The notes: generated by a model not told the origin, from the sequence alone. A stretch of DNA of 64,000 bases from Burkholderiales bacterium (GCA_035543335.1 DASZZH010000028.1:16392-80391); one strand, 5' to 3'. Numbered from the stretch's first letter, positions 1 to 58,586 are shown. Translations and numbers: made by a program.

Positions 1-405
1 CCCAGTGAACTCAGAATTAAAGCCAGACCCGAGTTCGAGCAACGCGGCAACGCGGCCGTTTACCTCAATATGGCCTGCACTGGGGTGAAGCGTGCCGCAG
101 ATGATTTGCAGCAGGGTGGACTTGCCCGAGCCGTTGCGCCCGATGATGCCAACCGTCTCGCTCTTCTTCACTTCAAAAGAGACATCTTTGAGCGCCCAGA
201 ACTCGCGGAAGTATTGCTTGGATGCTTGCCCGGTCAGGCGTTGGAGCCGGGGCGCAACAAACTGCTTGAGGCGATCACGCGGTGCATCGTAAAGGTGGTA
301 GCACTTGCTGAGGTTGCTTACACGGATAGCAATATTGTCCGTAGCAGTCTTCACTCCCGGCCCCTCTCCTAGGGGAGGAGTAGAATTGTTCTGGTTAGAG
401 GACAT
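1..405 (-). CDS. ABC transporter ATP-binding protein, O-antigen/polysaccharide export type (Wzt/TagH-like); N-terminal part only, gene runs off the window start
   Basis: Own translation of the minus strand from ATG at 405-403: MSSNQNNSTPPLGEGPGVKTATDNIAIRVSNLSKCYHLYDAPRDRLKQF...VKKSETVGIIGRNGSGKSTLLQII (Walker A)...GRVAALLELGSGFNSEFTG. Start overlaps the upstream permease stop by 11 nt. Absent from the ORF track because no stop lies in the window. Confidence 0.75.
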   Translation of the reverse strand, partial: MSSNQNNSTPPLGEGPGVKTATDNIAIRVSNLSKCYHLYDAPRDRLKQFVAPRLQRLTGQASKQYFREFWALKDVSFEVKKSETVGIIGRNGSGKSTLLQIICGTLHPSAGHIEVNGRVAALLELGSGFNSEFTG

Positions 406-1246
406 CGGCAAACCCCTTTCTGGTTTTTTGGAACCAGGCGTAGCCTGCCCAGGCTACGGCAGTAGCCGCCAAGGTGTAGATAGCCAAACCAGACCATTCG
501 GGCAGGTGGCCCCAGATAAGCACCTCACGCGCTTGCTCGATGATGAAGGTGAGCGGGTTGGCCATGATGAGAGGGCGGTATTTCTCCGGCAGGGCGGTAA
601 CGGGGAAAAACACGGGGGATAGAAACAACATCACAGTTGTGACGATGCCGATGGTTTGGCTAATATCGCGGATGAATACACCCAGCGAGGCAAAGATCCA
701 GGCCAGGCCGAGGGTGAGGATTACCAGCGGCAGCAGCACTAGCGGGGTGAAGATGGCCGTCCAGTGCAGGTAGCCGTTGAAGATGACAAAGGCGATGAGC
801 AGCACCAGCAGGCTGACCAGGCTGTGGAACAGCGCCGTACCCATGCTTATGGCGGGCAAGATCTCCAGCGGGAAGACGACTTTTTTGACGTAGTTGACAT
901 TGCCTAGAATCAGGACGGGGGCGCGGTTGAGCACTTCGGCAAACAGGCCGTGCACGATCATGCCGACAAAGAGCACCACGGCAAACTGGGTCTTGGTTTC
1001 CTCCTCACCCACTCCCCAGCGGGCTTTGAACACGACCGAGAAAACGAAGGTGAACACCACCAGCATGAACACAGGGTTGAGAAAAGACCATAACAGGCCC
1101 ATCAGAGAGCCCTTGTAGCGCCCGACCACTTCGCGGCGGGTCATTTGCCAAATCAAACCGCGGTTGCGCCAGAGACTTTTGGCCAGTGCCACGAGGGATG
1201 TAGGTTGGGCGGCGTGGGGGTTGATCGCTGTTGGGGTGTGGGTCAT
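395..1246 (-). CDS. ABC-2 type polysaccharide/O-antigen export permease (Wzm-like)
   Basis: 283-aa ORF with about six hydrophobic helices, resembles ABC-2 permeases; translationally coupled to the downstream ATPase and next to rfb genes. Confidence 0.8.
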   Translation of the reverse strand: MTHTPTAINPHAAQPTSLVALAKSLWRNRGLIWQMTRREVVGRYKGSLMGLLWSFLNPVFMLVVFTFVFSVVFKARWGVGEEETKTQFAVVLFVGMIVHGLFAEVLNRAPVLILGNVNYVKKVVFPLEILPAISMGTALFHSLVSLLVLLIAFVIFNGYLHWTAIFTPLVLLPLVILTLGLAWIFASLGVFIRDISQTIGIVTTVMLFLSPVFFPVTALPEKYRPLIMANPLTFIIEQAREVLIWGHLPEWSGLAIYTLAATAVAWAGYAWFQKTRKGFADVL

Positions 1247-1508
1247 GCGAAGTGCTCCGCTATTGCCAATGGTTTGGCTTGTTGGTCATTCCATGGCCCC
1301 GATAGACATATAAATATATACTTGCAATCTTTACAAAACAAGCTGTTAAAGCTTTTACCCTGCATGCGAAAGGTGGTTTTCAAGCCGCTGTCGGCGGCCT
1401 TGCGCAGCCGATTTTCAAATTCTCAACACATGGGCGTCGAGCGCATCCTGCACATTGAGCGTGCGCAGCGGCCGGCCGTGACCGCAGAAAAACAGCGCGG
1501 TTATGCAT

Positions 1509-2372
1509 TCACGCAGCATGCACATGGCCGTACTCGGCCAGGCATTGCTTCAATGATGATTGCCATGCCGGCAACTCGAGCCCGAAACTTGTCATGAATT
1601 TGGTGTTATCAAGCACTGAATTTGCCGGGCGCGCAGCCGGAGAGGGGTATTCTGAAGAAGGAATCGAGCGGACGGGTATGGCCTGGCCTGAGATGCGCAG
1701 TATTTCAGTTGCAAAACTAAACCAGCTTGTTGTGCCTGAAGCACTCAAATGAAATAAACCGGACCTTTCTTTCGTCTCATCGAGGACTCGTGCTGTTGTT
1801 TCGGCGATATCGCGTGCCCAGGTGGGTGCGCCCTGCTGATCGCCGACTACTTTAAGCTCGGGGCGCTCGGCCGCAAGCCGCAGTATCGTGAGAAGGAAAT
1901 TTTTTCCACGTGCGCTGTATACCCAGCTGGTCCGCAAAATCAAATATGGCGCGCCCGACGCCTGAATCGCCCGTTCTCCCGCGAGCTTGGTTTTGCCGTA
2001 CACGTTGAGCGGGTTGGGTGTGTCTTCCTCGGTATACGGTGTGGTTTTCGCGCCGTCGAACACGTAATCGGTGGAGTAATGCACGAGCAGCGCGCCGAGG
2101 CGTCTTGCCTCTTCCGCCATGATGCCGGGGGCGGTACCGTTGATTGCCATTGCAAGATCCGGCTCTGACTCGGCCTTGTCCACTGCGGTATAAGCCGCGG
2201 CGTTGACGATGATATCGGGCGTGATTTCTCGGATGCGCGCCCTGATGGCGTCCGAGTTTGCCAGATTCATTTCCTCACGGCCCAGGGCGATTACCTCGCC
2301 GAGCGCGCCGAGCATCCGTTGCAACTCCCAGCCAACTTGGCCGTTCTTTCCAGTGAGCAAAATGCGAGGCAT
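1509..2372 (-). CDS. rfbD: dTDP-4-dehydrorhamnose reductase
   Basis: 287 aa; N-terminal Rossmann motif ILLTGKNGQVGWEL and STDYVFDG...YGKTKLAGE typical of RmlD/RfbD. Confidence 0.9.
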   Translation of the reverse strand: MPRILLTGKNGQVGWELQRMLGALGEVIALGREEMNLANSDAIRARIREITPDIIVNAAAYTAVDKAESEPDLAMAINGTAPGIMAEEARRLGALLVHYSTDYVFDGAKTTPYTEEDTPNPLNVYGKTKLAGERAIQASGAPYLILRTSWVYSARGKNFLLTILRLAAERPELKVVGDQQGAPTWARDIAETTARVLDETKERSGLFHLSASGTTSWFSFATEILRISGQAIPVRSIPSSEYPSPAARPANSVLDNTKFMTSFGLELPAWQSSLKQCLAEYGHVHAA

Positions 2373-2375
2373 TTT

Positions 2376-2456
2376 GGTGAAGGGAAATTGGGAATGGGAA
2401 ATGGTGAATGGTTCCGGCGATGCTTTGACCGCCTCTTTTCCCTATTTCCTATTCCC
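2376..2456. repeat. Heptamer-type array A (GGTGAAG GGAAATT GGGAATG GGAAATG GTGAATG) plus inverted partner CCCTATTTCCTATTCCC
   Basis: Read directly: 2376-2412 G-rich 7-mer units; 2440-2456 is their approximate reverse complement, giving a hairpin between the rfbD start and the first TA module. Confidence 0.7.
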
Positions 2457-2465
2457 TGAACATCT

Positions 2466-2813
2466 CTATATAGTGACCAACACCGAAACCGATCCCAGCG
2501 GATGGTCGGTAGCCTTGGGCCGGATGATGATTTCTACGTCCCGGTCGAGCAGCGTCATGAAATACATCAACCGCTCCGACGAAAACCGGTTCAGCTTGTA
2601 ATTCATCAGGTCCGACACATGGGGCTGCGGAATACCGAAGATCGCGGCCGCCTTTGCCTGGGTAAGCCCATGCTCCTTGATGAACTCATTGACCCGCATC
2701 GCGAGCTGTACCTTGAGCTTGCGTTCGCCGGCATCGCGAAACCCCAGATCAATAAATACGTCGCCCGTGCCAGGATCAACAGAATCATGCTTTTTTGCCA
2801 TAGCGCACCTCAT
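2466..2813 (-). CDS. XRE-family HTH antitoxin (HigA-like), partner of the upstream Gp49-like toxin
   Basis: 115-aa ORF (likely start at MAKKHDS, 2801); ...GLTQAKAAAIFGIPQPHVSDLMNYKL is an XRE HTH; overlaps the toxin ORF end. Confidence 0.75.
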   Translation of the reverse strand: MRCAMAKKHDSVDPGTGDVFIDLGFRDAGERKLKVQLAMRVNEFIKEHGLTQAKAAAIFGIPQPHVSDLMNYKLNRFSSERLMYFMTLLDRDVEIIIRPKATDHPLGSVSVLVTI

Positions 2814-3162
2814 AGTCTTTCCGCGCCGCCTTCAGGCGGTCACGGATAAGTTCAACGTCAGTCTTCGCGGTACGGATGCCGGAGGGCGATTTTTTCTGAA
2901 AACAGTGCAAGATGTACATCGCCATCTGGAACCGTACTGTATAGACCGCTCGATACGCATTTCCCCGAAAATCTTCAACGATTTCTAGGACGCCCGGCCC
3001 TTCGCCTTTCCATGGCTTGGATGACGGCGGGATACTGCCCTGCTGCACTACGCCGAGGGCGTAGCCGATGTCGTCAACTACATCCTCGGGGAAACGCAGC
3101 AGATCCTTTTTCGAGGCCCCGACCCAGTGAACGGGTTGTTCGATCCGTGGCGCGGTCTTCAA
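2785..3162 (-). CDS. Gp49-like (DUF891) RelE/HigB-superfamily toxin
   Basis: 125 aa, TTG start; ...GVLEIVEDFRGNAYRAVYTVRFQMAMYILHCFQKKSPSGIRT matches the phage Gp49-like toxin pattern; toxin-first gene order as in HigBA. Confidence 0.75.
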   Translation of the reverse strand: MKTAPRIEQPVHWVGASKKDLLRFPEDVVDDIGYALGVVQQGSIPPSSKPWKGEGPGVLEIVEDFRGNAYRAVYTVRFQMAMYILHCFQKKSPSGIRTAKTDVELIRDRLKAARKDYEVRYGKKA

Positions 3163-3173
3163 ACAGTGATTTT

Positions 3174-3189
3174 ATACCGTTTTAGGTAT
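3174..3189 (-). promoter_or_regulatory. Inverted repeat ATACC-N6-GGTAT upstream of the Gp49-like/XRE operon (possible operator)
   Basis: Seen in sequence 12-27 nt upstream of the TTG start at 3162, overlapping a TATAAA-like -10 on the minus strand. Confidence 0.35.
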
Positions 3190-3227
3190 GACACACAATC
3201 CCCCTTCGAAAGCTGTCCCGCTAAGGC

Positions 3228-3315
3228 GTGATGGGGAATGGGTGATGAGTGATGGGTGAATGGTGAATGGTGAATGGTAAATGGTAAATGGTAAATGGTA
3301 AATGGGGAATGGTAA
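3228..3315. repeat. Heptamer tandem array B (about 12 units: GTGATGG, GTGAATG x3, GTAAATG x4, GGGAATG)
   Basis: Read directly: gtgatggggaatgggtgatgagtgatgggtgaatggtgaatggtgaatggtaaatggtaaatggtaaatggtaaatggggaatggtaa. Confidence 0.9.
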
Positions 3316-3316
3316 G

Positions 3317-3613
3317 CTATTTTTCGGATGAACTGACGGCTTTGCGGTGTAATCCAGTAACCAGCTTGACTACCCTTTCAAGCAGCTCAAACACTTCCCG
3401 TTGTTTCAGATAGCCCAGGTCCTCGGAAATGAGTAGAAGCTATCTCAACAGGGGATGACCACCCCTTCCGCTATCGCTCCCTCCCCTCCTCGTCGAGGAG
3501 GGGAAGCACAAAGTGCAGGGGTGGTCGCACGGCGTCTGCGTGACCGAGTAAACGGTCTTTACCAGCCGCATGGCTTCCTGCCATGCATCCAGCCGTTGGT
3601 GTGGTCTCGCCAT
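3317..3613 (-). pseudogene. Four-helix-bundle (23S rRNA IVS-type) protein gene remnant, middle replaced by a nested palindromic element
   Basis: Minus-strand translation gives N-terminus MARPHQRLDAWQEAMRLVKTVYSVTQ and C-terminus LLISEDLGYLKQREVFELLERVVKLVTGLHRKAVSSSEK*. Between them lies a GC-rich nested inverted repeat (3450-3535: gaccaccccttc...ctcccctcctcgtcgaggaggggaag...caggggtggtc). Confidence 0.5.
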
Positions 3614-3623
3614 TTATCAGAAT

Positions 3624-3963
3624 TATTGTTTCAGATCGAGGGGTAACAGGCTCAGTTCCGGGTCTTCATCAAACGCCCGAATCTTCGCGATCCTGCTGGA
3701 GACCAAGCGTGCTATGGCTGCAGTTCCTGCGTTGCCGACAGCCAGCCAGAGAACCTTCGGCGGCGGCCCATAGAGAACGCGTATTGCCGGAAGTCGTTGT
3801 CCTTGGACACGATCATGTAGCCATGATCGCGCGCGTAAGACCAGATCGCGATATCCACCGCGCCGCGCATGTCAAGGTGCTCGACGTGGGTACTGGCCGG
3901 GAAATCAGCCGCGAGAAGCTCTATGAGCCGCGGGCTGAGGTTTTCATCGAAAAGCAGCTTCAC
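3624..3963 (-). pseudogene. DUF5615-type PIN-like toxin, frameshifted
   Basis: Track ORF 3712-3963 (MKLLFDENLSPRLIELL...) ends abnormally. A second frame continues PPPKVLWLAVGNAGTAAIARLVSSRIAKIRAFDEDPELSLLPLDLKQ* to 3624, the expected family C-terminus. The 1-nt shift lies near 3755-3772 (ggccgccgccg run). Confidence 0.65.
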
Positions 3964-4187
3964 CCAGTAATCGGGGCCGCAAGCTTGCGTTCCCGGTCGG
4001 CCGCAAACTCAAGGGCGGCGCGGATATCTTCCTGCGACAGGGAGGGAAAATCCCGCAGGATATCGTCCTGCGACATGCCGCCGGCGAGATATTCCAGGAT
4101 GTCGTACACCGTAATGCGGGTGCCCTTGAAGCAAGGCTTGCCGCTGCGAACGGCCGGGTCAATAACGATGCGTTCTCGATAGCTCAT
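3960..4187 (-). CDS. DUF433 antitoxin-like protein
   Basis: 75 aa: IDPAVRSGKPCFKGTRITVYDILEYLAGGMSQDDILRDFPSLSQEDIRAALEFAA is the DUF433 pattern; 4-nt overlap with the DUF5615 gene. Confidence 0.75.
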   Translation of the reverse strand: MSYRERIVIDPAVRSGKPCFKGTRITVYDILEYLAGGMSQDDILRDFPSLSQEDIRAALEFAADRERKLAAPITG

Positions 4188-4383
4188 GATTGTTCATACT
4201 ACCGCTGGCATGCGGCGAACTCAAGGCCGCCGCGTAACGTTAACGTACAGCGCCGGGAAGCCCGCCGGAGCGTAGCGGCGGCGGGCTTCCCGGTACAGCG
4301 CAGAAAGCGGACAATTAACTTGCTACAACACCGGACAGTTCTATTTGCTCCCAACAGGTGGCGCGCGGACTGTCAACCTGGAG

Positions 4384-4426
4384 CATGGGGAATGGGGAAA
4401 TGGGGAATGGTTACCCCACCCCCATC
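4384..4426. repeat. Heptamer array C (CATGGGG AATGGGG AAATGGGG AATGGT) followed by the TACCCCACCCCCATC motif
   Basis: Read directly. The trailing 15-mer is the same motif that forms the right inverted repeat of the DUF559 unit at 13366. Confidence 0.75.
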
Positions 4427-4602
4427 TTGGCGCGCCCGCGGAGGGCGGAGCAGGTTTCGTTGGCTCTAGACAATAGATGCGACCCCGCAGCGGGATGCGG
4501 CGCCGGAGTCAACCGCGTGCTTATGTGCGCCTGCACGGTCACATCCCCAAAGGGGCCCCTGTTCCGCGTTCCAGCGCGCCCCCTGAGAGGGAAGGAACTC
4601 GA

Positions 4603-4619
4603 GTGATGGGTAATGGGTA
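4603..4619. repeat. Short heptamer array D (GTGATGG GTAATGG GTA)
   Basis: Read directly, 24 nt downstream (minus-strand sense) of the next TA module. Confidence 0.6.
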
Positions 4620-4642
4620 GACCGCTTATGGTCATCCCGGGA

Positions 4643-4927
4643 TCACGCCGCAAGGCGCAAATCCACCGGGATACCCGCCTTGGCGCAGAGTCCGACGAGA
4701 TAGTCGAGCGAAAGCAGTTCCACCTTGCCGCGCACAATCTCGGACATGCGGGGCTGTGCGATTTTCAGGCGCTTTGCGGCCTGCGCCTGGGTCAGTTTCT
4801 CGCGTTCGATCCAGACGCGCAGGGCCTCCGCCAACTCCGCGCGCAGCAGCATCACCGCTGCTTCGTGGGGCGGAAACCCCAGATCCAGAAAAATATTGCC
4901 GCTGGATTCCGTCACCTTTTTTGCCAT
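4643..4927 (-). CDS. XRE-family HTH antitoxin (HigA-like)
   Basis: 94 aa; KLTQAQAAKRLKIAQPRMSEIVRGKV HTH; paralogous to the 2466-2813 product (N-terminus MAKKVTESSGNIFLDLGF vs MAKKHDSVDPGTGDVFIDLGF). Confidence 0.8.
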   Translation of the reverse strand: MAKKVTESSGNIFLDLGFPPHEAAVMLLRAELAEALRVWIEREKLTQAQAAKRLKIAQPRMSEIVRGKVELLSLDYLVGLCAKAGIPVDLRLAA

Positions 4928-4930
4928 AAA

Positions 4931-5244
4931 TCACCTCATTCCTGCTACCGTAGCCGCTTCCCGATAACGCTGCGCGGCGAGTTGCAGATCGTGCCGGGCG
5001 GTTTTCTGCGTGTTCTTCCTGAATGCGTGCAACACATAAACCGCATCCGCGAACTTTGCCACGTAGATCACTCTGAATGCGCCTTCCCTGTCACGAACTC
5101 GTATTTCGCATGCTCCCGCGCCTATCGCGGGCATCGGCTTCCAGTCGTCGGGGTCGCGCCCATCTGCACCATGAACAGCTCGTGACCGGCGCGGATGCGG
5201 GCGGACCCCGGAAAAGCGGACAGGTCTTCCTTGGAGGAACCCAT
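4931..5244 (-). pseudogene. Gp49-like (DUF891) toxin, frameshifted
   Basis: From ATG 5244: MGSSKEDLSAFPGSARIRAGHELFMVQMG then premature stop. The track ORF 4931-5134 (…ACEIRVRDREGAFRVIYVAKFADAVYVLHAFRKNTQKT…) continues the family in another frame. A 1-nt deletion is inferred near 5158-5162. Confidence 0.65.
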
Positions 5245-5260
5245 GAAGCGTACAGGCTTT

Positions 5261-5288
5261 ATTATACGAATATTCGTATACCTGTCAA
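5261..5288 (-). promoter_or_regulatory. Near-consensus sigma70 promoter (TTGACA-N16-TATAAT) with embedded perfect 18-bp palindrome TATACGAATATTCGTATA
   Basis: Minus-strand reading ttgacaggtatacgaatattcgtataat, 16 nt upstream of ATG 5244. The palindrome (5263-5280) is a likely autoregulatory operator. Confidence 0.6.
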
Positions 5289-5404
5289 GTAAAATGAAGC
5301 GCCATCCGCTTGAGGAAAAGGAACTGAAACTGTGAGATTTCCATTGAGTGGAAGGTGAGAGTTCTTTGTTCGCGCTTCAACAAGTCATTTTCTAGAAGCC
5401 ATCT

Positions 5405-5450
5405 CAAAAATCCCCTCGCCCCGCCAGTGCGGGGCGAGGGAGCATTTTTG
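5405..5450 (-). terminator. Rho-independent (bidirectional) terminator downstream of rfbC
   Basis: aaaaatCCCCTCGCCCCGCcagtGCGGGGCGAGGGagcattttt: 12-bp perfect GC-rich stem flanked by A/T runs, 40 nt past the rfbC stop. Confidence 0.8.
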
Positions 5451-5487
5451 AGACCGGTTCTAGTCACCACCTGTCGTTCCACGGTTT

Positions 5488-6033
5488 TTACGGGAACGCT
5501 TCCGCCTTGGCGAAGGGCACGCCCTGCCGGTCCTTGGCGGAGAGCAATGGTTCGCCTTGCAGCGGCCAGGCGATGCCGAGATCGGGATCGTTCCACAGGA
5601 TGGTGCGCTCGTATTCGGGCGAGTAATAATCGGTGGTTTTGTACAGGAGTTCCGCTGCTTCGGAGAGCGCCAGAAATCCGTGGGCAAATCCAGGCGGTAT
5701 CCAGATAATTCGTTTGTTTTGGGTGGACAGCTTTGTACCTGCCCATTTGCCGAATGTGGGCGAGCTCTTGCGGATATCCACCGCCACGTCGAAGACCTCT
5801 CCCGCAGTCACGCGAATCAACTTCCCCTGCGGCTGCTTGATCTGGTAATGCAATCCGCGCACCACGTTTCGTGCCGAGCGTGAATGATTGTCCTGCACGA
5901 ATTCCGCGTCGATCCCGGTGGCTTGCGCGAACGCCTTGCGATTGAAGCTTTCGAAGAAGAAGCCGCGCGCGTCGCCGAATACTTTCGGTTCGATGATCAG
6001 CACGTCAGGAATGGCGGTCTTAATTAAATTCAT
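5488..6033 (-). CDS. rfbC: dTDP-4-dehydrorhamnose 3,5-epimerase
   Basis: 181 aa; FGDARGFFFESFN...RGLHYQ...GKLIRVTAGEVFDVAVDIR typical of RmlC. Confidence 0.92.
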   Translation of the reverse strand: MNLIKTAIPDVLIIEPKVFGDARGFFFESFNRKAFAQATGIDAEFVQDNHSRSARNVVRGLHYQIKQPQGKLIRVTAGEVFDVAVDIRKSSPTFGKWAGTKLSTQNKRIIWIPPGFAHGFLALSEAAELLYKTTDYYSPEYERTILWNDPDLGIAWPLQGEPLLSAKDRQGVPFAKAEAFP

Positions 6034-6037
6034 GTTC

Positions 6038-6162
6038 TAGTAATGGGTGATGGGTGATGAGTAATGAGTGATTAGGTGATGGGTGATGAGTGATGAGTGA
6101 TGAGTAATGAGTGATTAGGTGATGGGTAATGGGTGATGAGTGATTAGGTGATGGGTGATGAG
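6038..6162. repeat. Heptamer tandem array E (about 17 units GGGTGAT/GAGTGAT/GAGTAAT with occasional TAGGTGAT) filling the whole rfbA-rfbC spacer
   Basis: Read directly. The array abuts the rfbC start (6033) and the rfbA stop (6164). No Shine-Dalgarno-like sequence is visible upstream of rfbC. Confidence 0.9.
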
Positions 6163-6163
6163 T

Positions 6164-7039
6164 TCAGAAAATCTTGTCTTGCAGCAGGCTCAGCAAATAG
6201 GCGCCATAGCCGCTGCCTTTCAGCGGTTCGGCAAGCGCCTGCAACTGTTCAGCGGAGATGTATCCCATGCGGTAGGCGATTTCTTCGGGGCAGGCGATTT
6301 TGAGGCCCTGGCGTTTTTCGATGGTCTGGATGAATTGGCCGGCTTCAAGCAGGGAGTCGTTGGTGCCGGTATCCAGCCACGCATGGCCGCGCCCCATGAC
6401 GACGACGTCCAGTTTTCTCCGGCTAAGGTAATGCCGGTTGACATCGGTGATCTCAAGTTCGCCGCGCGCGGAGGGCTTGAGTGATTCGGCGATGCCGACC
6501 ACGTCGCTGTCGTAGAAATACAGACCCGTCACCGCATAGCGGGAACGGGGTTTCTCCGGTTTCTCCTCCAAAGAAATGGCGCGGTTTTGTCCGTCAAATT
6601 CCACCACACCGTAGCGCTGCGGGTCCTGGACGGGGTAGGCAAATATGGTGGCGCCGGTTTGCCTGGCCGCGGCTTTTCGAAGGTCCATTCCCAGATCGTG
6701 GCCGTAGAATATGTTGTCACCAAGAACCAGCGCGCACGGCCCGCCATTGAGGAATGATTTGCCGATGATGATGGCTTGGGCGATCCCGTCCGGACTGCGC
6801 TGCACCGCGTAGGAAATGGCCAGTCCCCATTGCTCGCCGTCGCCAAGCAACTGCTCGAACCTCGAGATATCCTGGGGCGTGGAGATGAGGAGAAGTTCGC
6901 GAATGCCGGCCAACATCAAGGTTGTCAGGGGATAGTAGATCATTGGCTTGTCGTAGACCGGCAACAATTGTTTCGACACCGCGTGCGTCATCGGATACAG
7001 CCGCGTGCCCGATCCGCCGGCGAGAATGATGCCTTTCAT
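6164..7039 (-). CDS. rfbA: Glucose-1-phosphate thymidylyltransferase
   Basis: 291 aa; [18 protein letters not shown]...[17 protein letters not shown] is the RmlA signature. Confidence 0.93.
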
Positions 7040-7048
7040 TGTGCAATC

Positions 7049-7429
7049 CTACCGGGCGACCAGGACCGAAGGCCCGTACGCGGCGAGCGGCTGGTCTTGC
7101 GTGAGCAAGAGCATCGCCTCGGCGAGGCTCTGCGCGACCAGCAGGCGGTCGAACGGGTCCCTATGGTGCTTCGGGAGCTGGGCGACGCGCGCCGCGTGAC
7201 GGCCCGTCACTGCCAATTCCTGGAAACCGCCTTCGCGTAACGCAGCGACAAACTCGTCCGGGTTGATGCGGATCTTGCCGAGGGACACTTTGATCGCGAC
7301 CTCCCATACGCTCACAGCGCTCGCATAGATTTGGTTGCCGGGGTCGCGGATGAGTTCAGCCGCGCGCGCAGGAATACTTTTTCCGGCAAGCCACCAGATC
7401 AGCAGGTGCGTGTCGACCAGCAACCTCAC
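7049..7429 (-). CDS. vapC: PIN-domain toxin VapC
   Basis: 126 aa; MRLLVDTHLLIWWL...SAVSVWEVAIK...HRDPFDRLLVAQS has the PIN acidic residues; 4-nt overlap with the antitoxin. Confidence 0.85.
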   Translation of the reverse strand: MRLLVDTHLLIWWLAGKSIPARAAELIRDPGNQIYASAVSVWEVAIKVSLGKIRINPDEFVAALREGGFQELAVTGRHAARVAQLPKHHRDPFDRLLVAQSLAEAMLLLTQDQPLAAYGPSVLVAR

Positions 7430-7674
7430 CGGGAGCCGGCCTTGCCTTCGAAGGCGTCGAGCAGATCGTGGGCAAGCGGCGCATCGAAGTCCTTGCTCAC
7501 GCGGATGCGGCCTTTCATGAGGCCGGGCATGCGGGGGGCCGTGGAAGCGGCTGCCGGCACGAGCCGCGCGACCGGGCGACCGGCCTTGGCGATCACAATT
7601 TCCTCACCGGCGTTGACCCGCTCGATCAAACGGGACAGTTGCGTCTTGGCCTGATGAATGTTGATGGTTTCCAT
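7426..7674 (-). CDS. Phd/YefM-type antitoxin (VapB role)
   Basis: 82 aa; METINIHQAKTQLSRLIERVNAGEEIVIAKAGRPVARLVP is a typical Phd/YefM N-terminus. Confidence 0.8.
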   Translation of the reverse strand: METINIHQAKTQLSRLIERVNAGEEIVIAKAGRPVARLVPAAASTAPRMPGLMKGRIRVSKDFDAPLAHDLLDAFEGKAGSR

Positions 7675-7746
7675 TGCAATCTCCTTAGGACTTAGCTAAG
7701 TCTAGCTAAGTGGCTGCGGTCCGTCAACCGCCGCTTGCTGCAACAA

Positions 7747-7856
7747 CCCCCTTGTCAAAGGGGGCCGACGCGTCGAAGGTGCGCGGGGGAATTTCTTCCG
7801 CAATCGGACGGCTGAAAATCCTCCGCGGCTGCGCCGCTGCCCCTTTAACAAGGGGG
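7747..7856. repeat. REP-like hairpins (CCCCCTTGTCAAAGGGGG and GCCCCTTTAACAAGGGGGC)
   Basis: Two short perfect hairpins read directly between vapB and rfbB. Confidence 0.6.
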
Positions 7857-7913
7857 CGACACTCCCTGCGGCTTGCGCTGCTGCCCGCTTTCCGCGCCCT
7901 GGTGTACGGCCGC

Positions 7914-9011
7914 TCAGCGGCCGGCGTAGTTGGTGTCGATCCAGCGCCGATACGCGCCGCTCATCACTTCGGCCACCCAGTCTGGGTTGTCGAGGTACCA
8001 AGCCACCGTCTTGCGAATCCCGGTTTCGAAGCTTTCCTCCGGCCGCCAGCCGAGTTCCCGTGAGATCTTGCTGAAGTCCATGGCGTAACGGCGGTCGTGG
8101 CCTGGACGGTCTTTGACGAACGTGATCAGCGAGGAGTAATGGGTGATGGGTGATGGGTGACCGGGTGATTGGGTGATTGGGTGAGGAACGAGGGGACGAA
8201 GTTCGTCGAGAATGCCGCAAACGGTTTTGACTACTTCTAGGTTGGTTTTTTCGCTGCCGCCGCCAATGTTGTACATTTTTCCGACCCGGCCGCGGGCCAG
8301 TACTGCCCGAATCGAAGCACAATGGTCGCCGACGTAGAGCCAGTCGCGGACATTCATCCCGTCGCCGTAGACCGGAAGGGGCTTGCCCTGCAGCGCGTTG
8401 AGTATCATCAGAGGTATGAGCTTTTCCGGAAATTGGTAAGGGCCATAGTTGTTGGAGCAATTCGTAACCATAACGGGCAGCCCATAGGTGCGGCAATAAG
8501 CCCGTACCAAATGATCGGCTCCCGCCTTGGACGCCGCGTAGGGGCTGTTCGGAGCGTAACGGCTGGTCTCGATGAAAGGAGCCTCATCGGGCTCGAGCGA
8601 ACCGTATACCTCATCGGTGGAGACGTGGAGAAAGCGGAACGCCGCTTGCTCCGGCTCCGGGAGTTTTTGCCAATGCGCCCGCGCTTCTTCCAGCAGGTGA
8701 AATGTGCCCAATACGTTGGTCAGGATAAAATCTTCCGGGCCGTATATCGACCGGTCGACGTGGCTTTCTGCGGCAAAGTGGACGATGGCGCGGGGTCGAT
8801 GCTGGACAAGCAGTTGGCTAACCAGCGTCCTGTCGCCTATATCGCCATGAACGAAAATATGTTTCGAGCTGTTCTTCAGGCTGGAAAGGTTGTGCAGGTT
8901 GCCGGCGTAAGTGAGCTTGTCCAGATTCACAACGGGGGTGCTTTCCGTTGCGATCCAGTCAAGCACGAAATTCGAACCGATAAATCCGGCGCCGCCGGTA
9001 ACGAGGATCAT
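7914..9011 (-). CDS. rfbB: dTDP-glucose 4,6-dehydratase
   Basis: 365 aa; [16 protein letters not shown]...[15 protein letters not shown]...[10 protein letters not shown]. Carries an in-frame heptamer-repeat-encoded segment (see the 8134-8186 repeat). Confidence 0.93.
8134..8186. repeat. Heptamer array F inside the rfbB coding sequence
   Basis: gagtaatgggtgatgggtgatgggtgaccgggtgattgggtgattgggtgagg; on the coding strand it encodes [18 protein letters not shown]. Confidence 0.85.
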
Positions 9012-9098
9012 GTAACCGCTCCAAGAGCACGTGAATCAAAGCGGGATTGTAACGTCTGGCGCCCTGATTTTCCATGGCGTAAAGATAACGGGCGGTAT

Positions 9099-9266
9099 CA
9101 GGCTGTTGAAAAAGTCTCGCATCGTCATTGCGAGGAGCGCGGTCTGCGACGAAGCAATCTCGAACTCTTTGATTCGAAAAAGTGAGATTGCTTCCCCTTC
9201 GCTGCGCTCTGGGCTGCGGCTCACGCGCTCGCAATGACGGGTAATTCGACTTTATCAACAGCCTGG
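9099..9266. repeat. Nested palindromic (REP-like) element
   Basis: Three nested inverted-repeat pairs: tcaggctgttga/tcaacagcctgg, cgtcattgcgag/ctcgcaatgacg, gaagcaatctcg/gtgagattgcttc. Confidence 0.65.
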
Positions 9267-9342
9267 TATCCCGGTTTGCTGGTTTTGCATGCCAACATGA
9301 AGCAGGAAAGCTTGTTTTTGGCGCGGGAAGCGCGTAACATTG

Positions 9343-9364
9343 TTTCCGTAACATGTTACGGAAA
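9343..9364 (+). promoter_or_regulatory. Perfect 22-bp palindrome TTTCCGTAACATGTTACGGAAA (candidate operator)
   Basis: Read directly, 8 nt upstream of ATG 9372. A related half-site CGTAACAT lies at 9331-9338. Confidence 0.5.
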
Positions 9365-9371
9365 ATATATC

Positions 9372-10049
9372 ATGCGCCATAATCAAAATGAAGATTGGGC
9401 AAAACTCTGGAAAAGCATAGTCGAAATAGCAAAAAGCTATCCCGAGAGTGTTGTATTCATCGGCGGGGTTGCCGTTTACATTCATGTTTCCGGTGCCAAG
9501 GACGCAGCGGGGTTCATTGAAACCAGCCATGATGCCGACTTTTACATTTCGCTTGCCGATTTTGCCGATCTGCGCGATGTAGAAGAAGTCACCGCCAATC
9601 GCCGGCTCAACAAGTACCAGATTGTCAAGGACGGACTCGAGTACGATATTTACCTCGAGCACAACAATGCTCTTGCGGTGCCTTACCATGAGGTTTTTGC
9701 CCGCTCGACCGTTATAGAGGGTATCCGCGTTGCATGTCTGGAACACTTGGTGGTATTAAAACTTAACGCCTGGCAGGATCGGCGGGGCAGCGCGAAGGGA
9801 AGAAAAGATGAGCGCGACCTGATCAAGCTCTGTTGGCTGATAGCAAAACAGGGTTTTGACGCCGGTCTGGTGCGCCCTTATCTGACTGCGGAACAAGCCG
9901 GGCTGCTTTCAAACCTGCCCAAGTCGCCCGAATTTCTGGCTGTGACTTCCGGCAACATGCACGCTGCCCGCCCCCTGCGGGAAGCCTGCGAACGCGTGGC
10001 AAAAGAGCTGGCGAAACCGGCCAAGCCGGTCAAGCGTCCAAAGGGGTGA
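9372..10049 (+). CDS. Nucleotidyltransferase-fold protein (AbiEii/MNT-like, tentative)
   Basis: Track ORF 9234-10049; likely start is M47 (9372). VVFIGGVAVYIHVSG...ETSHDADFYIS resembles the GG...(D/E)xD NTase motif. GC is lower than the flanks. Confidence 0.5.
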   Translation: MRHNQNEDWAKLWKSIVEIAKSYPESVVFIGGVAVYIHVSGAKDAAGFIETSHDADFYISLADFADLRDVEEVTANRRLNKYQIVKDGLEYDIYLEHNNALAVPYHEVFARSTVIEGIRVACLEHLVVLKLNAWQDRRGSAKGRKDERDLIKLCWLIAKQGFDAGLVRPYLTAEQAGLLSNLPKSPEFLAVTSGNMHAARPLREACERVAKELAKPAKPVKRPKG

Positions 10050-10052
10050 ACA

Positions 10053-10490
10053 ATGAAACCCATCCCTTTTCGTCCCATGATTGCGCCGCCAAAAATTGCG
10101 GCCTCGCCACCGTCCCGCAAAGCCTATCCGCATCTCACTGACTTTGCGAGGCTGTGCGAAGCGGCCGGGATTCCCTCGCGCGTTACCGGCGGCGATCCGC
10201 TCCGAGTGGCGCTAGGCCCGGCGCAGGAGAGCATCCGCTGCGACAACATCCGCTACGTGGGTCTGGGGCAGGATTTCGCAAAGCCCGCGCGCGAAAAAGC
10301 GCTCAGGGCACTGGAAATACTCACGCACGCCTTCCATGAATACGCAGCCCGAGAGGCAGTATGCGGGCGAAACCTGTTCAGCGTTCCGGCGAAACCCGGG
10401 CGCCCGCGGTCGGCAGGCCGTCCCTTAAGTGCCGCGGAACGGATGAGGAGAATGAGGGCGCGCCCGGTTCGCAATGACAGATCAAAATGA
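10053..10490 (+). CDS. Hypothetical protein, 145 aa, basic C-terminal tail (PAKPGRPRSAGRPLSAAERMRRMRAR)
   Basis: ORF begins 3 nt after the NTase-like stop. I recognise no family. Confidence 0.4.
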   Translation: MKPIPFRPMIAPPKIAASPPSRKAYPHLTDFARLCEAAGIPSRVTGGDPLRVALGPAQESIRCDNIRYVGLGQDFAKPAREKALRALEILTHAFHEYAAREAVCGRNLFSVPAKPGRPRSAGRPLSAAERMRRMRARPVRNDRSK

Positions 10491-10522
10491 GCCACCGCGA
10501 ATAAACCGTGGTGGAAAGGCCT

Positions 10523-11830
10523 TCAGGCTTTGACGATATTGCCGGCAGGTTCCAGGTAGACGCCTCTCGTGTCGACGATCAATTTGGCATACTTTTTGAT
10601 GATGTGGTAATCGAAAGCATCGTGATTGGTGGTGAGCACCACGCAGTCGTAAACGGCGAGAGAATCGGGTGTTAGCGGGATGCTGTGCAGTGCAAAATCA
10701 TGCTTGCGTATTTTGGGGAAGACCGGCACATGCGGGTCCGAATAAGCTAATTCTGCGCCTTTGGCCCGGAGCAATTCCATCAGCTCAACGGCGGGAGATT
10801 CGCGCATGTCCTCCACGTTTTTTTTGTAGGCAATGCCGAGAACAAGAACACGGCTGCCCTTGATTGCCTTGCCTCGGTCATTCAATGCGTCGGCGATTTT
10901 TCCCAAGACCCACGTCGGCATGTTGCTATTGACTTCGCCCGCCAATTCGATGAAGCGGGTGTGCACACCGTATTGACGGGCTTTCCAAGTGAGATAAAAA
11001 GGATCGATGGGAATGCAGTGACCCCCCAGGCCGGGGCCGGGATAGTAAGGGACGAAACCAAACGGTTTGGTGGCGGCGGCGCGGATGACTTCGTGAATGT
11101 CGATGCCCATTTTGTCGGCGATGATTTTCATTTCATTCACCAAACCGATGTTGACCGCGCGGTGGATGTTTTCCAGCAACTTGGCCATTTCCGCCGTTCG
11201 TGCCGAACTCACCGGCACAACCTTGTCGATAGCTTGCCGGTAAAGCGCGAGGCCCGCTTTAAGGCAGGATGCAGTGGTGCCGCCGCAGACTTTGGGTATG
11301 GCCCGGATCTCGAAATCGGAATTGGCCGGGTCCACCCGCTCCGGTGAGAACACCAGAAATATATCTTTGCCGACTACGAGCCCGGTTGATTCGATGCGCG
11401 GCTTCAGTTCCTCATCCGTGGTTCCGGGATAGGTGGTGCTTTCCAGCGAGACCACTTGTCCCGCGCGCAAATGCGGCAGCAGCGAATTCAAGGTGCCGAG
11501 GACGAAGCTGAGATCCGGCTCTCGATAAGGATTGAGCGGCGTCGGAACGCAGATAATCAGCGCGTCCGCCTCGGAGGATTTCTTAAATTCGCTGGTGGCG
11601 ACGAAGCCTTTTTTCAGGGCAGTCGCGATGGATTGGCTGGGAATGTAACTGATGTAGCTCTCGCCTTTATTCAGGCGACTGACCTTGTCCGGATCGATAT
11701 CGATGCCCAACACCCGATAGCCGGCTTCGCTAAACCGCAGCATCAAGGGCAATCCCACATAGCCCAGGCCGATAATGCCGATGAGAGCGGACCGATTCTC
11801 CAGTTTTACGATGAGTTTACTGAGCGACAT
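10523..11830 (-). CDS. Nucleotide-sugar dehydrogenase (UDP-glucose/GDP-mannose dehydrogenase family, WbpA/TviB-like)
   Basis: Likely start M11 (11830): [29 protein letters not shown] (NAD-binding GxGxxG); ...GGHCIPIDP catalytic Cys motif. Confidence 0.85.
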
Positions 11831-11985
11831 ACACCACCGGAGCCTTAAAAAATCAGCCAATTATACACCAATGCGGAAGCGCTCCCCGGCACGGTCGGCC
11901 GCGTCCTTTGCCGGCCAATCTTTGAGCATAAATCGTTTCAGTGTAGGCTAGTGGGTCGCGAATCCCCCGACAATCAAAATCACTA

Positions 11986-13020
11986 ATGCCAAAAATTTTG
12001 CTGGTCAAAACCTCCTCGATGGGGGATGTCGTCCACAATCTGCCGGTGGTGAGCGACATCCGCCGGCATTTTCCCGAGGCGCACATCGACTGGGTGGTGG
12101 AGGAAGCGTATCAGGCGATTCCGGTGATGCACGCAGGAGTGGGCGCCGTTTTACCGGTGAAATTGCGCCGTTGGCGCAAAACGCTGTGGCAGCGGCAGAC
12201 CTGGTGGGAGCTTGCTGATTTCCGCGAGTGGCTGGGCAGCGGGCAGTACGATTTTATTCTCGATTCCCAGGGATTGATTAAAAGCGCGCTGATCACACGG
12301 CTGGCGCGCGGTGTGCGCTGCGGGCTCAACTGGAAGAGCGCGCGCGAGCCGCTGGGCTGGTTTTACGACCGTGTTTTTGACGTGCCGTGGACGCTGCACG
12401 CGGTGCAGAGAAACCGTTCGCTCGCCGCGCAGGCGCTGGGTTATGCGCTGGAGGGCAAGGCGGATTACGGCATTCAGGCCAAGCCCGCAAATTTTTCCTG
12501 GCTTAAAGCCCCCTATGCAGTGTTGTTGCATGCGAGCAGCGACAGCGACAAGCTTTGGCCGGAACCGCGCTGGATTGAGCTGGGTGCTTATCTGAATGGA
12601 TCGGGGCTCTCCTGCGTTCTGCCGTGGGGCAGCGAAGGCGAGCGGGTGCGCAGCGAGCGGCTGGCACGCCGGATAAAATTTTCTGTTATGCCCCCGCAGC
12701 TCACTCTTGACGAAGCGGCGTCCCTGCTTGCCGGCGCCAAAGTTGTCATCGGCGTCGATACCGGGCTTGCGCATCTCGCCGCGGCGCTCAAAGTCCCGGT
12801 CATCGGGATTTACTGCGCGACCGAGCCTCAAGACACCGGAATTTATTCCGAAAGCGCCGTCAATCTGGGCGGGAAAAATCGCCCGCCGGCGGTAGGCGCG
12901 GTTGCGGCGGCGCTCGATAAGTTGCTTGCGGTACGCTCCGACTTTCCTTCCCCCTTGATGGGGGAAAATTTAAACCCTCCCCTTCAAGGGGAGGGTACGG
13001 GTGGGGATGGGGTAGCGTGA
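11986..13020 (+). CDS. waaC: ADP-heptose:LPS heptosyltransferase I
   Basis: MPKILLVKTSSMGDVVHNLPVVSDIRRHFPEAHIDWVVEE is typical of WaaC/RfaC. The last ~25 codons (…SPLMGENLNPPLQGEGTGGDGVA*) are encoded by repeat sequence. Confidence 0.85.
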   Translation: MPKILLVKTSSMGDVVHNLPVVSDIRRHFPEAHIDWVVEEAYQAIPVMHAGVGAVLPVKLRRWRKTLWQRQTWWELADFREWLGSGQYDFILDSQGLIKSALITRLARGVRCGLNWKSAREPLGWFYDRVFDVPWTLHAVQRNRSLAAQALGYALEGKADYGIQAKPANFSWLKAPYAVLLHASSDSDKLWPEPRWIELGAYLNGSGLSCVLPWGSEGERVRSERLARRIKFSVMPPQLTLDEAASLLAGAKVVIGVDTGLAHLAAALKVPVIGIYCATEPQDTGIYSESAVNLGGKNRPPAVGAVAAALDKLLAVRSDFPSPLMGENLNPPLQGEGTGGDGVA

Positions 13021-13405
13021 AAGGGCAAATCAACAAGAGCATTCTTCAGGGCGGACTTCAACGCAGACTGCGCGACAACATGACTGATGCGGAGTTGCGC
13101 TTATGGCATTACCTGCATAGAAGGCAAATGGACGGTTTCAAATTCCGTAGGCAGCATCCTTTCGGAGACTACATTCTTGACTTTGTTTGCCTGGAAGCGA
13201 TGCTTGTAATCGAGATGGACGGAGGGCAGCATGGAGAGCACATGGAGCGGGACGCAGCTCGCACGGCAACGCTGATGAGCGCGGGTTTCAGGGTGCTGAG
13301 ATTTTGGAATAACGAGATATTTCATGACGTCGAAGCGGTTAAGGATTCGATATGGCGCGCTTTGCATACCCCACCCCCATCCCAACCTTCCCCCTGAGGG
13401 GGAAG
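12975..13405 (+). mobile_element. DUF559 gene flanked by ~40-bp imperfect terminal inverted repeats (selfish-element-like unit)
   Basis: Left CCCTCCCCTTCAAGGGGAGGGTACGGGTGGGGATGGGGTA (12975-13014) and right TACCCCACCCCCATCCCAACCTTCCCCCTGAGGGGGAAGG (13366-13405) are near reverse complements. Confidence 0.55.
13017..13397 (+). CDS. DUF559 (Vsr-like endonuclease fold) protein
   Basis: 126 aa, GTG start overlapping the waaC stop; MTDAELRLWHYLHRRQMDGFKFRRQHPFGDYILDFVC...IEMDGGQH...RVLRFWNNEI is the DUF559 pattern. Confidence 0.8.
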   Translation: MKGQINKSILQGGLQRRLRDNMTDAELRLWHYLHRRQMDGFKFRRQHPFGDYILDFVCLEAMLVIEMDGGQHGEHMERDAARTATLMSAGFRVLRFWNNEIFHDVEAVKDSIWRALHTPPPSQPSP

Positions 13406-13574
13406 GAGTTAAAAAATGGTGGCTTCCCGCGAAGAGGGAGGAGTTAAAAAATGGCGGCTTCTCCTTCACCGGCTTGAGCAGAGTGAATTCCTGCTCCCCC
13501 TGATGAGGAAGGAGTTAAAAAATGGTGACTTCTCACTGGTAGGGAGGGAGCTGAAGCCGGTGGCTTCCTCTGAT

Positions 13575-13790
13575 TTGCGAACCTCTCCTTCAAGAGGAGG
13601 CAGAATCTTACGATTCCTCCCCTTCACAGGGATGCAGAATTTTATGATCCCTCCCCTTCAAGGGGATGCAGAATTTTATGATCCCTCCCCCTCAAGGGGA
13701 TGCAGAATTTTAGAACCCTTCTCTTCACGGGGAGGCAGAATTTTATGATCCCTCCCCTTCAAGGGGAGGGTTGGGGTGGGGATGGGTTAT
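13575..13790. repeat. Six tandem ~34-35-bp hairpin units (CCTCCCCTTCAAGGGGA[T/G]GCAGAATTTTATGAT), preceded at 13395-13570 by GGAGGAGTTAAAAAATGG-type repeats
   Basis: Read directly. Units are contiguous with no unique spacers. The last unit ends in GGTTGGGGTGGGGATGGG, the left-TIR motif of the DUF559 unit. Confidence 0.8.
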
Positions 13791-13837
13791 TGAAAAGGAA
13801 CTGACGACCTTTCCCTCAGCGGTAAGGGGACATTGAG

Positions 13838-15909: not shown

Positions 15910-15974
15910 GGACCTGAAATCGGAGGGCGTTTGCGAGCTTGCAATTATCGCATAGTCCGAGTAGCGTCTCACTT

Positions 15975-16105
15975 ACGTTAGGGGTCCTGGTTGTTAATGG
16001 AACCCTACAAAACTCCCAAGCGCAAGCGACGAGTTTTGTAGACCAGCCGGGTGAGATCATACCCTTATAACCTGATACGGATAATGCCGGCGCAGGGAAG
16101 CGTTG
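15975..16105 (+). promoter_or_regulatory. TPP (THI-box) riboswitch upstream of thiC
   Basis: GGGUGAGAUCAUACCCUUAUAACCUGAUACGGAUAAUGCCGGCGCAGGGAAG matches the conserved THI-box core (CUGAGA...ACCC...AACCUGAUCNGGNUAAUNCCNGCG.AGGGA). Downstream CCUCC (16110-16114) can pair with the GAGGAG SD (16134-16139), suggesting translational control. Confidence 0.8.
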
Positions 16106-16106
16106 A

Positions 16107-18017
<1,911 letters not shown>

Positions 18018-58075: not shown

Positions 58076-58550
58076 CGAAATAGCCCTGTAAAATCTGTTG
58101 TGCGGCCAGCTGGTCGATGCGGGTTTTGGTTTGCGCCGCGCCGCTTTCCCTGAGCGAAAGTTCGGCGGCGTGGGAGCTCAAGCGTTCATCAACCAAAGCG
58201 GTGCGCAGCCTGAACCGTTGTTCCAGCTGCCGCGCGAACTTGCGGCAGCGCTTGCTCATTTCGTGCTCGGCGCCGTTCATATGCGACGGCAGGCCGACTA
58301 CTAGAAGCGCAGGCCGCCATTCTTCGATCAGGTCCGTAATCGCATCCAGGCGTTTGGCAGCCTGCGTTGCTTCGATGGCGGTGAGCGGATGGGCAATGCG
58401 CACACTCAAATCGCCCACTGCGACGCCGATGCGTTTCTCGCCATAATCGAAAGCCAAAACCGTTCCGGTTTTGGAGTGAGGGGTAAGGGGTGAGGGGTAA
58501 GGGGTAGATTTTGTTTTTACCACGCTGTTGTTTTGCTCCTCGCTCTCCAC
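58062..58550 (-). CDS. ruvX: Holliday-junction-resolvase-like YqgF/RuvX; start uncertain
   Basis: ...GTVLAFDYGEKRIGVAVGD... The N-terminal ~30 codons of the track ORF (GTG 58550) include heptamer-repeat sequence (TPYPSPLTPHS). Confidence 0.8.
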   Translation of the reverse strand: MESEEQNNSVVKTKSTPYPSPLTPHSKTGTVLAFDYGEKRIGVAVGDLSVRIAHPLTAIEATQAAKRLDAITDLIEEWRPALLVVGLPSHMNGAEHEMSKRCRKFARQLEQRFRLRTALVDERLSSHAAELSLRESGAAQTKTRIDQLAAQQILQGYFDELA

Positions 58551-58586
58551 ATTTTCACCTCAACTCTCAACTCATAACTTTTAACT
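58476..58586. repeat. Two adjacent heptamer arrays: (GTRAGGG)x4 at 58476-58506 and (YTYAACT)x4 at 58558-58586
   Basis: gtgaggggtaaggggtgaggggtaaggggta and ctcaactctcaactcataacttttaact, read directly. Confidence 0.75.

Follow-up and report, generated by a model that had tools for sequence, protein, structure and literature searches.

Heptanucleotide tandem arrays in the rfb region of a Burkholderiales bacterium: probable slippage-generated repeats next to genes without a Shine-Dalgarno motif

A stretch of 64,000 nt from a Burkholderiales bacterium (GCA_035543335.1 DASZZH010000028.1:16392-80391), referred to here as the window, contains tandem arrays of G-rich heptanucleotides, most of them within the rfb region that carries the rhamnose/O-antigen genes rfbB, rfbA, rfbC, and rfbD. 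All coordinates are those of the whole 64,000-nt stretch unless a locus is named. The genes within 395-9011 are all on the minus strand and, in the order of the transcript, the region reads rfbB, VapB, VapC, rfbA, rfbC, a terminator-like hairpin, a promoter-like site, the toxin-antitoxin (TA) module TA3, a non-coding element, TA2, a decayed gene of the 23S_rRNA_IVP family (IVP), TA1, and rfbD. The arrays and the rfb genes are as follows.

1509..2372, minus strand: rfbD (RmlD), without a Shine-Dalgarno (SD) motif
2376..2412, minus strand: heptamer array A1, rich in G on the + strand and without G in the mRNA, reaching the rfbD AUG at 2372
2432..2457, minus strand: inverted partner of A1, lacking G on the + strand, predicted to form a hairpin with A1 just upstream of rfbD
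3228..3315, minus strand: heptamer array A2, ~12 units, including GGTGAAT x3 and GGTAAAT x4
4384..4411, minus strand: heptamer/octamer array A3, GGGGAAT/GGGGAAAT units
4603..4619, minus strand: short array A4, ~2.5 units, with the TA3 antitoxin stop codon 24 nt away
5488..6033, minus strand: rfbC (RmlC), without an SD motif; of the 64 open reading frames (ORFs) of the window, none has a less structured initiation region
6038..6162, minus strand: heptamer array A5, ~17 units, occupying the whole rfbA-rfbC spacer and ending 4 nt before the rfbC AUG
6164..7039, minus strand: rfbA (RmlA), with an AGGA-type SD motif
7914..9011, minus strand: rfbB (RmlB), 365 aa, identical to an NCBI protein from a Burkholderiales bacterium metagenome-assembled genome (MAG)
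8134..8186, minus strand: array A6, in frame within rfbB, encoding ~12 extra loop residues
58476..58506, minus strand: array A7 of GTRAGGG units, between yqgE and ruvX; the probable TTG start of ruvX follows ~18 nt downstream

Arrays were detected with Tandem Repeats Finder, by direct reading, and with a strict period-7/8 detector. Tandem Repeats Finder reported 2382-2411, 3231-3315 (period 7, 11.7 copies), 4385-4410, 8140-8184, and 58476-58506, as well as 6040-6160 (period 7, 16.4 copies, plus a 43-nt higher-order period); the A4 run was seen by eye. The strict detector found four arrays totalling 193 bp, compared with 0.05 on average across 100 simulations that preserved dinucleotide frequencies, which rules out a chance origin. 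An earlier note on this DNA had described heptamer arrays at these places, and both Tandem Repeats Finder and the simulations agree with it, as do the gene calls with its placing of A5 across the entire rfbA-rfbC spacer and of A6 inside rfbB. It had also proposed that array lengths be compared between assemblies. Contigs from two independent Logan assemblies show 100 % identity to the window across 425-6083 and 6098-13663 and reproduce the arrays of up to 88 nt exactly, ruling out an assembly artefact for arrays of this size; both contigs break inside the 125-nt array A5, the exact copy number of which is therefore uncertain.

On the + strand all seven arrays are C-free, being composed of G, A, and T only, and on the minus-strand rfb transcripts they are G-free. 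The unit consensus is RGKRAWG on the + strand, with the variants GGTGATG, AGTGATG, GGTAATG, GGTGAAT, GGTAAAT, and GGGAATG; on the transcribed strand, units begin with CAT and contain no G. Unit variants cluster locally and form higher-order blocks with periods of 21 nt and 43 nt. Six of the seven arrays are intergenic and one is in frame within rfbB. The rfb region is strikingly enriched, with six of the seven arrays crowded into ~6 kb of the rfb operon; A7, the seventh, is where the core housekeeping genes yqgE and ruvX meet. Another short heptamer run, of CTCAACT units on the + strand and G-rich in the mRNA sense, faces A7 at 58543-58586, after the yqgE stop codon. A hairpin between this run and A7 was considered and rejected, the predicted pairing being no better than that of shuffled sequences (z = +0.5).

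The arrays consist of head-to-tail heptamer units in at least two copies, which places them in the class of G-rich heptanucleotide simple sequence repeats (SSRs). No equivalent in proteobacteria had been known to the earlier note, yet heptamer repeats have been published for Xanthomonas (PMC4692102), Beggiatoaceae (PMC4679880), Burkholderia (Mrazek 2007, via PMC4679880), and Geobacter, where G. metallireducens has GGGACCG x4 elements (PMC2700814). The window arrays are thus another instance of an already published heptamer SSR class. Mrazek (2007), as cited in PMC4679880, found no long SSR class more abundant than heptamers and placed four genomes of Burkholderia among the top ten for repeats of 5-11 nt.

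The closest likeness is to the class of G-rich heptamer repeats in Xanthomonas and Nostoc, the latter with units GGGGA(T/C)T (PMC4692102). Rehm et al. (2015) found ~185 G-rich heptamer arrays per Xanthomonas genome, with units GGGAATC/(GGGANTN)n, ~90 % of them intergenic, on average 28 nt from the 5′ ORF and 160 nt from the downstream ORF, and with ~70 convergent inverted pairs (PMC4692102). Shared features are heterogeneous G-rich heptamer arrays (2-26 units there) in mostly intergenic positions, a location much nearer to the ORF at the 5′ end of the G-rich strand, numerous convergent inverted pairs, the occasional copy inside a gene, and variation in array length and sequence between relatives at the same spacer; one host of that class is, moreover, a proteobacterium. 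Convergent inverted pairs are present here at 2376-2412 with 2432-2457 and, in a relative, in the rfbA-rfbC spacer. The differences are in the unit (RGKRAWG rather than GGGAATC), in the many units here that lack a run of three G and hence have patchy G-quadruplex potential, in the betaproteobacterial MAG host, and in distribution, which is genome-wide in Xanthomonas, whereas six of seven arrays here, within a 64-kb window, are in one operon.

In marine Beggiatoaceae, TAACTGA arrays are found just upstream of SD-less start codons and also within ORFs, and a translational role has been proposed (MacGregor 2015; PMC4679880). The arrays described here similarly end a few nucleotides from start codons of genes without an SD motif. 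The TAACTGA repeats have a patchy distribution shared with Cyanobacteria and Bacteroidetes, and the proposed role would be exerted via S1, Csp, and CsrA. They have a different unit, mostly in 2-6 copies compared with up to ~17 here, and neither the G-free strand bias nor the inverted partners seen here were reported in that study (PMC4679880). The position relative to the neighbouring gene and the missing SD motif have thus both been reported before (PMC4692102; PMC4679880). In Nostoc recO, eight heptamers overlap the start codon.

The canonical units of the cyanobacterial short tandemly repeated repetitive (STRR) sequences are CCCCAGT, TTGGTCA, and CAACAGT. The likeness to STRR drawn by the earlier note holds in so far as both are tandem heptanucleotide arrays in non-coding DNA, belonging to the same general class, and GGTGATG arrays do occur in cyanobacteria; it does not extend to the units, which are RGKRAWG here, or to the host, which is a Burkholderiales MAG and no cyanobacterium. 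The main effect of the finding is to extend a known but little understood repeat class to betaproteobacteria of a Sulfuricella-like lineage.

An exact search for (GGTGATG)x3, with one genome per species, returned at least 120 loci, a sample rather than a count, where chance would give ~0.3 matches for a 21-mer. The matches listed are in Cyanobacteria (Nostoc, Anabaena, Sphaerospermopsis, and others), Bacteroidota, Betaproteobacteria and Gammaproteobacteria (including several Sulfuricella MAGs), Acidobacteriota, Desulfobacterota, Actinomycetota, and other groups. In 125 arrays, which come from at least 120 genomes, the ORF lying 5′ of the G-rich strand is a median of 8 nt away, compared with 65 nt for the ORF on the opposite side. 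The distances of 4-5 nt from the rfbD and rfbC starts follow the same pattern; A2 is an exception, abutting the stop codon of the decayed IVP gene on its 3′ side, 2 nt past it, and lying 66 nt upstream of the TA1 toxin ORF. Among the matches listed, the C-rich strand is followed, for 51 of the 125 arrays, by an ORF of at least 80 aa that starts no more than 45 nt from the 3′ end of that strand, and 17 arrays are fused to an ATG, supplying its 'AT'. All 39 apparently intragenic arrays have the C-rich strand as the sense strand, many of these being ORFs artificially extended through the stop-free array. The Pfam families of 150 flanking ORFs are diverse, those listed having housekeeping or regulatory roles, among them gyrase, pyruvate kinase, GcpE, NADH dehydrogenase, and HisA/F.

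The absence of a visible SD motif from rfbC, remarked on earlier, was confirmed and applies equally to rfbD. In both genes it is accounted for by the G-free array, which runs up to 4-5 nt from the start codon and, being G-free, can provide neither an SD motif nor self-folding; folding of the 130-nt rfbA-rfbC spacer as RNA gives a minimum free energy of 0 kcal/mol. It had been speculated that the arrays act through resemblance to the SD or anti-SD sequence. The strand carried by the rfb transcripts is the anti-SD-like one, which is unable to pair with 16S rRNA. Where an array has a complementary partner, folding is predicted: 2365-2470, comprising A1 and its partner, folds into a hairpin of -28.7 kcal/mol (z = -2.46).

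Orthologous rfb loci of relatives (L122-L126, the last being Sulfurimicrobium lacus AP022853.1) were compared with the window. In L122 the order is rfbB-VapBC-rfbA-rfbC-rfbD, with VapBC in the same position as in the window; a G-rich array is located at the rfbB stop codon, a C-rich array is fused to the rfbA ATG, and an array is present in the same RfbB loop, with none between rfbA and rfbC. In L123, rfbB is followed by a G-rich array, an IVP gene, a C-rich array, rfbA, a G-rich and a C-rich array, rfbC, DUF2442, DUF433, DUF5615, a C-rich array of ~22 units, and rfbD; its arrays end 3-8 nt before rfbA, rfbC, and rfbD, and its rfbA-rfbC spacer is predicted to form a hairpin of -45.7 kcal/mol (z = -5.3). 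An array close to the start codon together with the lack of an SD motif is also found at rfbA of L122 and at rfbA, rfbC, and rfbD of L123. In L125 there are two IVP genes, both enclosed by complementary octamer arrays, L124 has a compact rfb operon with no array, and L126 has no spacer array and an array-free IVP gene. Spacer arrays in the rfb loci thus occur with and without TA modules, and their presence, length, and unit vary between relatives. The loop insertion encoded by A6, after ILDELRP, recurs with similar PITH-type peptides in the nearest RfbB homologs, at 72-73 % identity (P0002, P0003, P0004, P0007, and P0013), and is missing from most other homologs; judging from these sequences, it is either old or recurrent. 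In the cultured relative, a CACCCCT x5 array is present in frame inside rfbD (L126:13492-13526), adding 8 residues in the VSPLTPHPSLL region. Elsewhere, two genes that overlap by 4 nt in the window (50189-50228) are separated in a Sulfuricella MAG by a 155-nt spacer with a GGTGATG array (L053:1926-1961).

Based on these comparisons, it is probable that the arrays are heptamer SSRs generated by slippage and tolerated in spacers and in the RfbB loop, which at rfbC and rfbD serve as unstructured leaders in place of the SD region. The local clustering of unit variants and their higher-order blocks argue for an origin in situ, the arrays arising and changing by replication slippage and block duplication. 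They would persist where they are harmless, which is between genes and, in one case, within a surface loop of RfbB. As reported for the G-rich heptamers of Xanthomonas and Nostoc and for the TAACTGA repeats of Beggiatoaceae, the G-rich strand has a gene end directly at its 5′ end, and with this placement the mRNA has a G-free tract up to the rfbC and rfbD start codons. Such a leader may provide an open, unstructured standby or landing site for the ribosome and so allow SD-independent initiation, which is consistent with PMC3121790, according to which absence of local structure permits the translation of SD-less mRNAs. With a complementary G-rich partner nearby, the array would instead fold into a hairpin, and in relatives the arms appear to enclose small inserted genes (IVP, VapBC). 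A translational role is plausible on these sequence grounds, and rfbC and rfbD offer a clean natural example of SD-less genes behind a long leader entirely free of G and of structure, a testable case for SD-independent initiation.

Several observations weigh against this interpretation. The arrays could be neutral rather than translational, and pairing of the rfbD leader with its G-rich partner, at the energy given above, would occlude the start rather than open it. No array length polymorphism was found between four assemblies, all from one study. Pure neutral slippage leaves unexplained that six of the seven arrays are in one 6-kb operon and that the rfb loci of relatives are enriched as well, and the complementary, unit-matched arms around the inserted genes of relatives point beyond independent slippage.

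The earlier note had proposed that the arrays bracket every TA insertion in the operon, at exactly the borders between rfb genes and TA modules, as hotspots or scars of insertion. The modules and other elements concerned are as follows.

2466..3162, minus strand: TA1, apparently intact; HTH_37 antitoxin 2466-2801, Gp49/HigB-like toxin 2785-3162
3318..3613, minus strand: decayed 23S_rRNA_IVP gene (four-helix bundle), with the N-terminal 27 aa and C-terminal 40 aa left
3629..4230, minus strand: TA2 cassette; DUF433 3960-4187, DUF5615/PIN-like 3712-3963, frameshifted by a 1-nt deletion
4412..4602, no strand assigned: non-coding GC-rich element, 190 nt, between A3 and A4; no Rfam match
4643..5245, minus strand: TA3; HTH_37 antitoxin 4643-4927 intact, Gp49 toxin pseudogene 4931-~5245, frameshifted
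5261..5288, minus strand: sigma-70 consensus promoter-like site, perfect (12/12), upstream of TA3
5412..5441, minus strand: strong terminator-like hairpin after rfbC, 13 pairs then a T run; bidirectional
7049..7674, minus strand: VapBC; PIN toxin 7049-7429, PhdYeFM antitoxin 7426-7674; without a flanking array

This association is not supported. VapBC is array-free on both sides, TA3 lacks an array towards rfbC (5246-5487), and what A3 and A4 flank is the 190-nt non-coding element rather than an rfb gene. The largest array, A5, is between rfbA and rfbC with no TA module there, A6 is inside rfbB, and A7 separates two housekeeping genes. In the orthologous loci, arrays are present without TA modules in the rfbA-rfbC spacer of L123 and around the IVP genes of L125, and among the 150 ORFs flanking (GGTGATG)≥3 arrays elsewhere no TA family has two or more members. 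Arrays at orthologous rfb loci without TA insertions had been named by the earlier note as grounds for refuting its proposal. A TA-specific association is thereby ruled out: the arrays are not scars of TA insertion, and the TA modules are bystanders rather than causes. What stands of the hotspot proposal is that the rfbC-rfbD interval has accreted small selfish modules beside arrays, without TA specificity. Most likely the interval is an accretion zone in which such modules landed beside or inside pre-existing arrays; three modules of the interval have already decayed. Small modules may accumulate preferentially at array-bearing spacers, a tendency without TA specificity, with counter-examples, and with no recombinase in the region.

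Complementary arrays were also found around IVP genes. In 23S rRNA, intervening sequences carry an IVP (PF05635) ORF in the loop between complementary stem arms. A comparable arrangement, with the IVP gene in the loop of complementary flanking arms that could pair into a long stem, is seen in L123 (9085-9540), in L125 (3688-4168 and 5039-5558), and for many metagenome IVP genes; the window has a remnant at 3228-3613, a decayed gene with one arm (A2) only. Unlike rRNA intervening sequences, these putative cassettes are hosted by a protein-coding operon and have arms made up of tandem heptamers or octamers. The flanks are predicted to form duplexes in L125 (z = -7.0) and L123 (z = -5.9). In a sample of 80 metagenome 23S_rRNA_IVP loci (L127-L206), scored for a period-7/8 array within 120 nt of the gene end, 46 of 150 IVP gene ends (31 %) had an array compared with 18 of 264 other ends on the same contigs (6.8 %; odds ratio 6.0, p = 5e-10). 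Of 20 arrays upstream of the gene 17 were G-rich, and of 33 downstream of it 30 were C-rich; the units were complementary in ~8 of 10 two-armed loci. No published description of an IVP-array association was found, and the association may be new. These statistics are a possible lead on heptamer over-representation in certain bacterial phyla.

These observations also allow the arrays to be read as remains of cassettes resembling rRNA intervening sequences but sited in protein-coding operons. Complementary arrays would form a stem with a small gene, typically an Avd-like IVP, in the loop, the lone arrays of the window being solo arms left after loss or replacement of the cargo; the IVP protein might bind, process, or propagate the arrays, in which case an orphan protein family would be tied to the STRR-type repeats, long without an explanation. 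Most arrays, however, have no nearby IVP gene. Among the matches listed, one was found at only 1 of 120 array loci and was not adjacent, which rules out an IVP gene beside most arrays and makes the cassette explanation unlikely. To be regarded as similarly improbable is, as a wider form of the hotspot proposal of the earlier note, that the arrays are landing pads or recombination substrates at which small cassettes (TA, IVP, short non-coding elements) are inserted or exchanged. TA2 has 87 % nt identity to L123:11643-12245, also in the rfbC-rfbD interval, compared with 72 % for rfbC and 57-72 % for the flanking rfb genes between the two lineages, and its homology stops precisely at the start of the L123 array; same-orientation arrays that share unit types flank TA1, and likewise the 190-nt element, as if one array had been split, and the inserted VapBC and IVP genes of L122, L123, and L125 are between complementary arrays. 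Nevertheless, there is no recombinase or transposase in the rfb region and no integrase-like ORF in 1-12000, the array flanks being tandem heptamers rather than attC palindromes. The window VapBC and the L126 IVP gene were inserted without any array, the biggest array has no cargo, and the Sulfuricella array in L053 separates genes that overlap directly in the window. The rarity of IVP genes at array loci counts here as well, as do the housekeeping and regulatory families listed for the 150 flanking ORFs, in which no IVP family, any more than a TA family, reaches two members.

Slippage with tolerance is also to be preferred to two regulatory explanations, both very unlikely. As contingency loci, the arrays would switch or tune the rhamnose/O-antigen genes by gain or loss of 7 nt, either through frameshifting of rfbB or through altered rfbC and rfbD leaders, giving a phase-varying surface polysaccharide. 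Slippage of a 7-nt unit inside rfbB would indeed shift the frame, arrays are concentrated in the surface-polysaccharide operon of several relatives, and SSR-driven lipopolysaccharide phase variation is, according to work cited in PMC4679880, well established in other bacteria. However, A6 is degenerate, with 3 perfect units followed by 8-nt units, and it has been kept in frame, a similar insertion being common to homologs of 72 % identity; the four assemblies of one study are identical for arrays of up to 88 nt, and the genes adjoining such arrays elsewhere are mostly housekeeping. Slightly less probable still is that the arrays are G-quadruplex/i-motif elements on the template strand that modulate rfb transcription, as has been proposed for repeats of the GGGAATC type in Xanthomonas and Nostoc. 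Similar repeats form G-quadruplexes in vitro (PMC4692102), and 8140-8184, 4385-4410, 2382-2411, and 58476-58506 each have at least three G3-4 tracts with short loops; by sequence alone, 8140-8184 and 58476-58506 have at least four G3 tracts, whereas most of 3228-3315 and 6038-6162 do not. In these two longest arrays most units (GGTGAAT, GGTAAAT, GAGTGAT, TAGGTGA) contain only GG or a single G, so that a canonical G-quadruplex could not form, and in vivo Rehm et al. saw no effect on regulation (PMC4692102).

A single polycistronic rfb transcript is doubtful, with a terminator-like hairpin after rfbC and a consensus promoter before TA3; given these two predicted elements (5412-5441 and 5261-5288), rfbD is probably not co-transcribed with rfbBAC. 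A recent foreign origin of the rfb genes was rejected, there being no compositional signal (GC content 57-58 %, compared with 56.8 % for the window). The closest synteny is at 47.8-53.3 kb, with a Sulfuricella MAG at ~74 % nt identity. Look-ups of the exact RfbD protein and of P0031 gave no record. Within the non-coding GC-rich element, 4435-4580 has 74.5 % nt identity to L125:2175-2325, an rfb-adjacent spacer of a relative. In place of the middle of the decayed IVP gene there is a palindromic element (~3455-3530; ACCACCCCT...CCCCTCCTCGTCGAGGAGGGG...AGGGGTGGT), and similar CCCCTC...GAGGGG palindromes are found at 7747-7856, 13365-13800, and L125:442-957. A 34-bp tandem repeat of 5.6 copies with a hairpin-bearing unit (CCTCCCCTTCAAGGGGAGG) adjoins a DUF559-type ORF at 13582-13769 and is bracketed by C-rich and G-rich inverted arms at 13365-13395 and 13761-13800. 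Rfam searches gave no match within 2300-8300 at E ≤ 1, and at the gathering threshold the only match in the window was a TPP (thiamine pyrophosphate) riboswitch on the + strand at 15970-16115 (RF00059, 61.9 bits).

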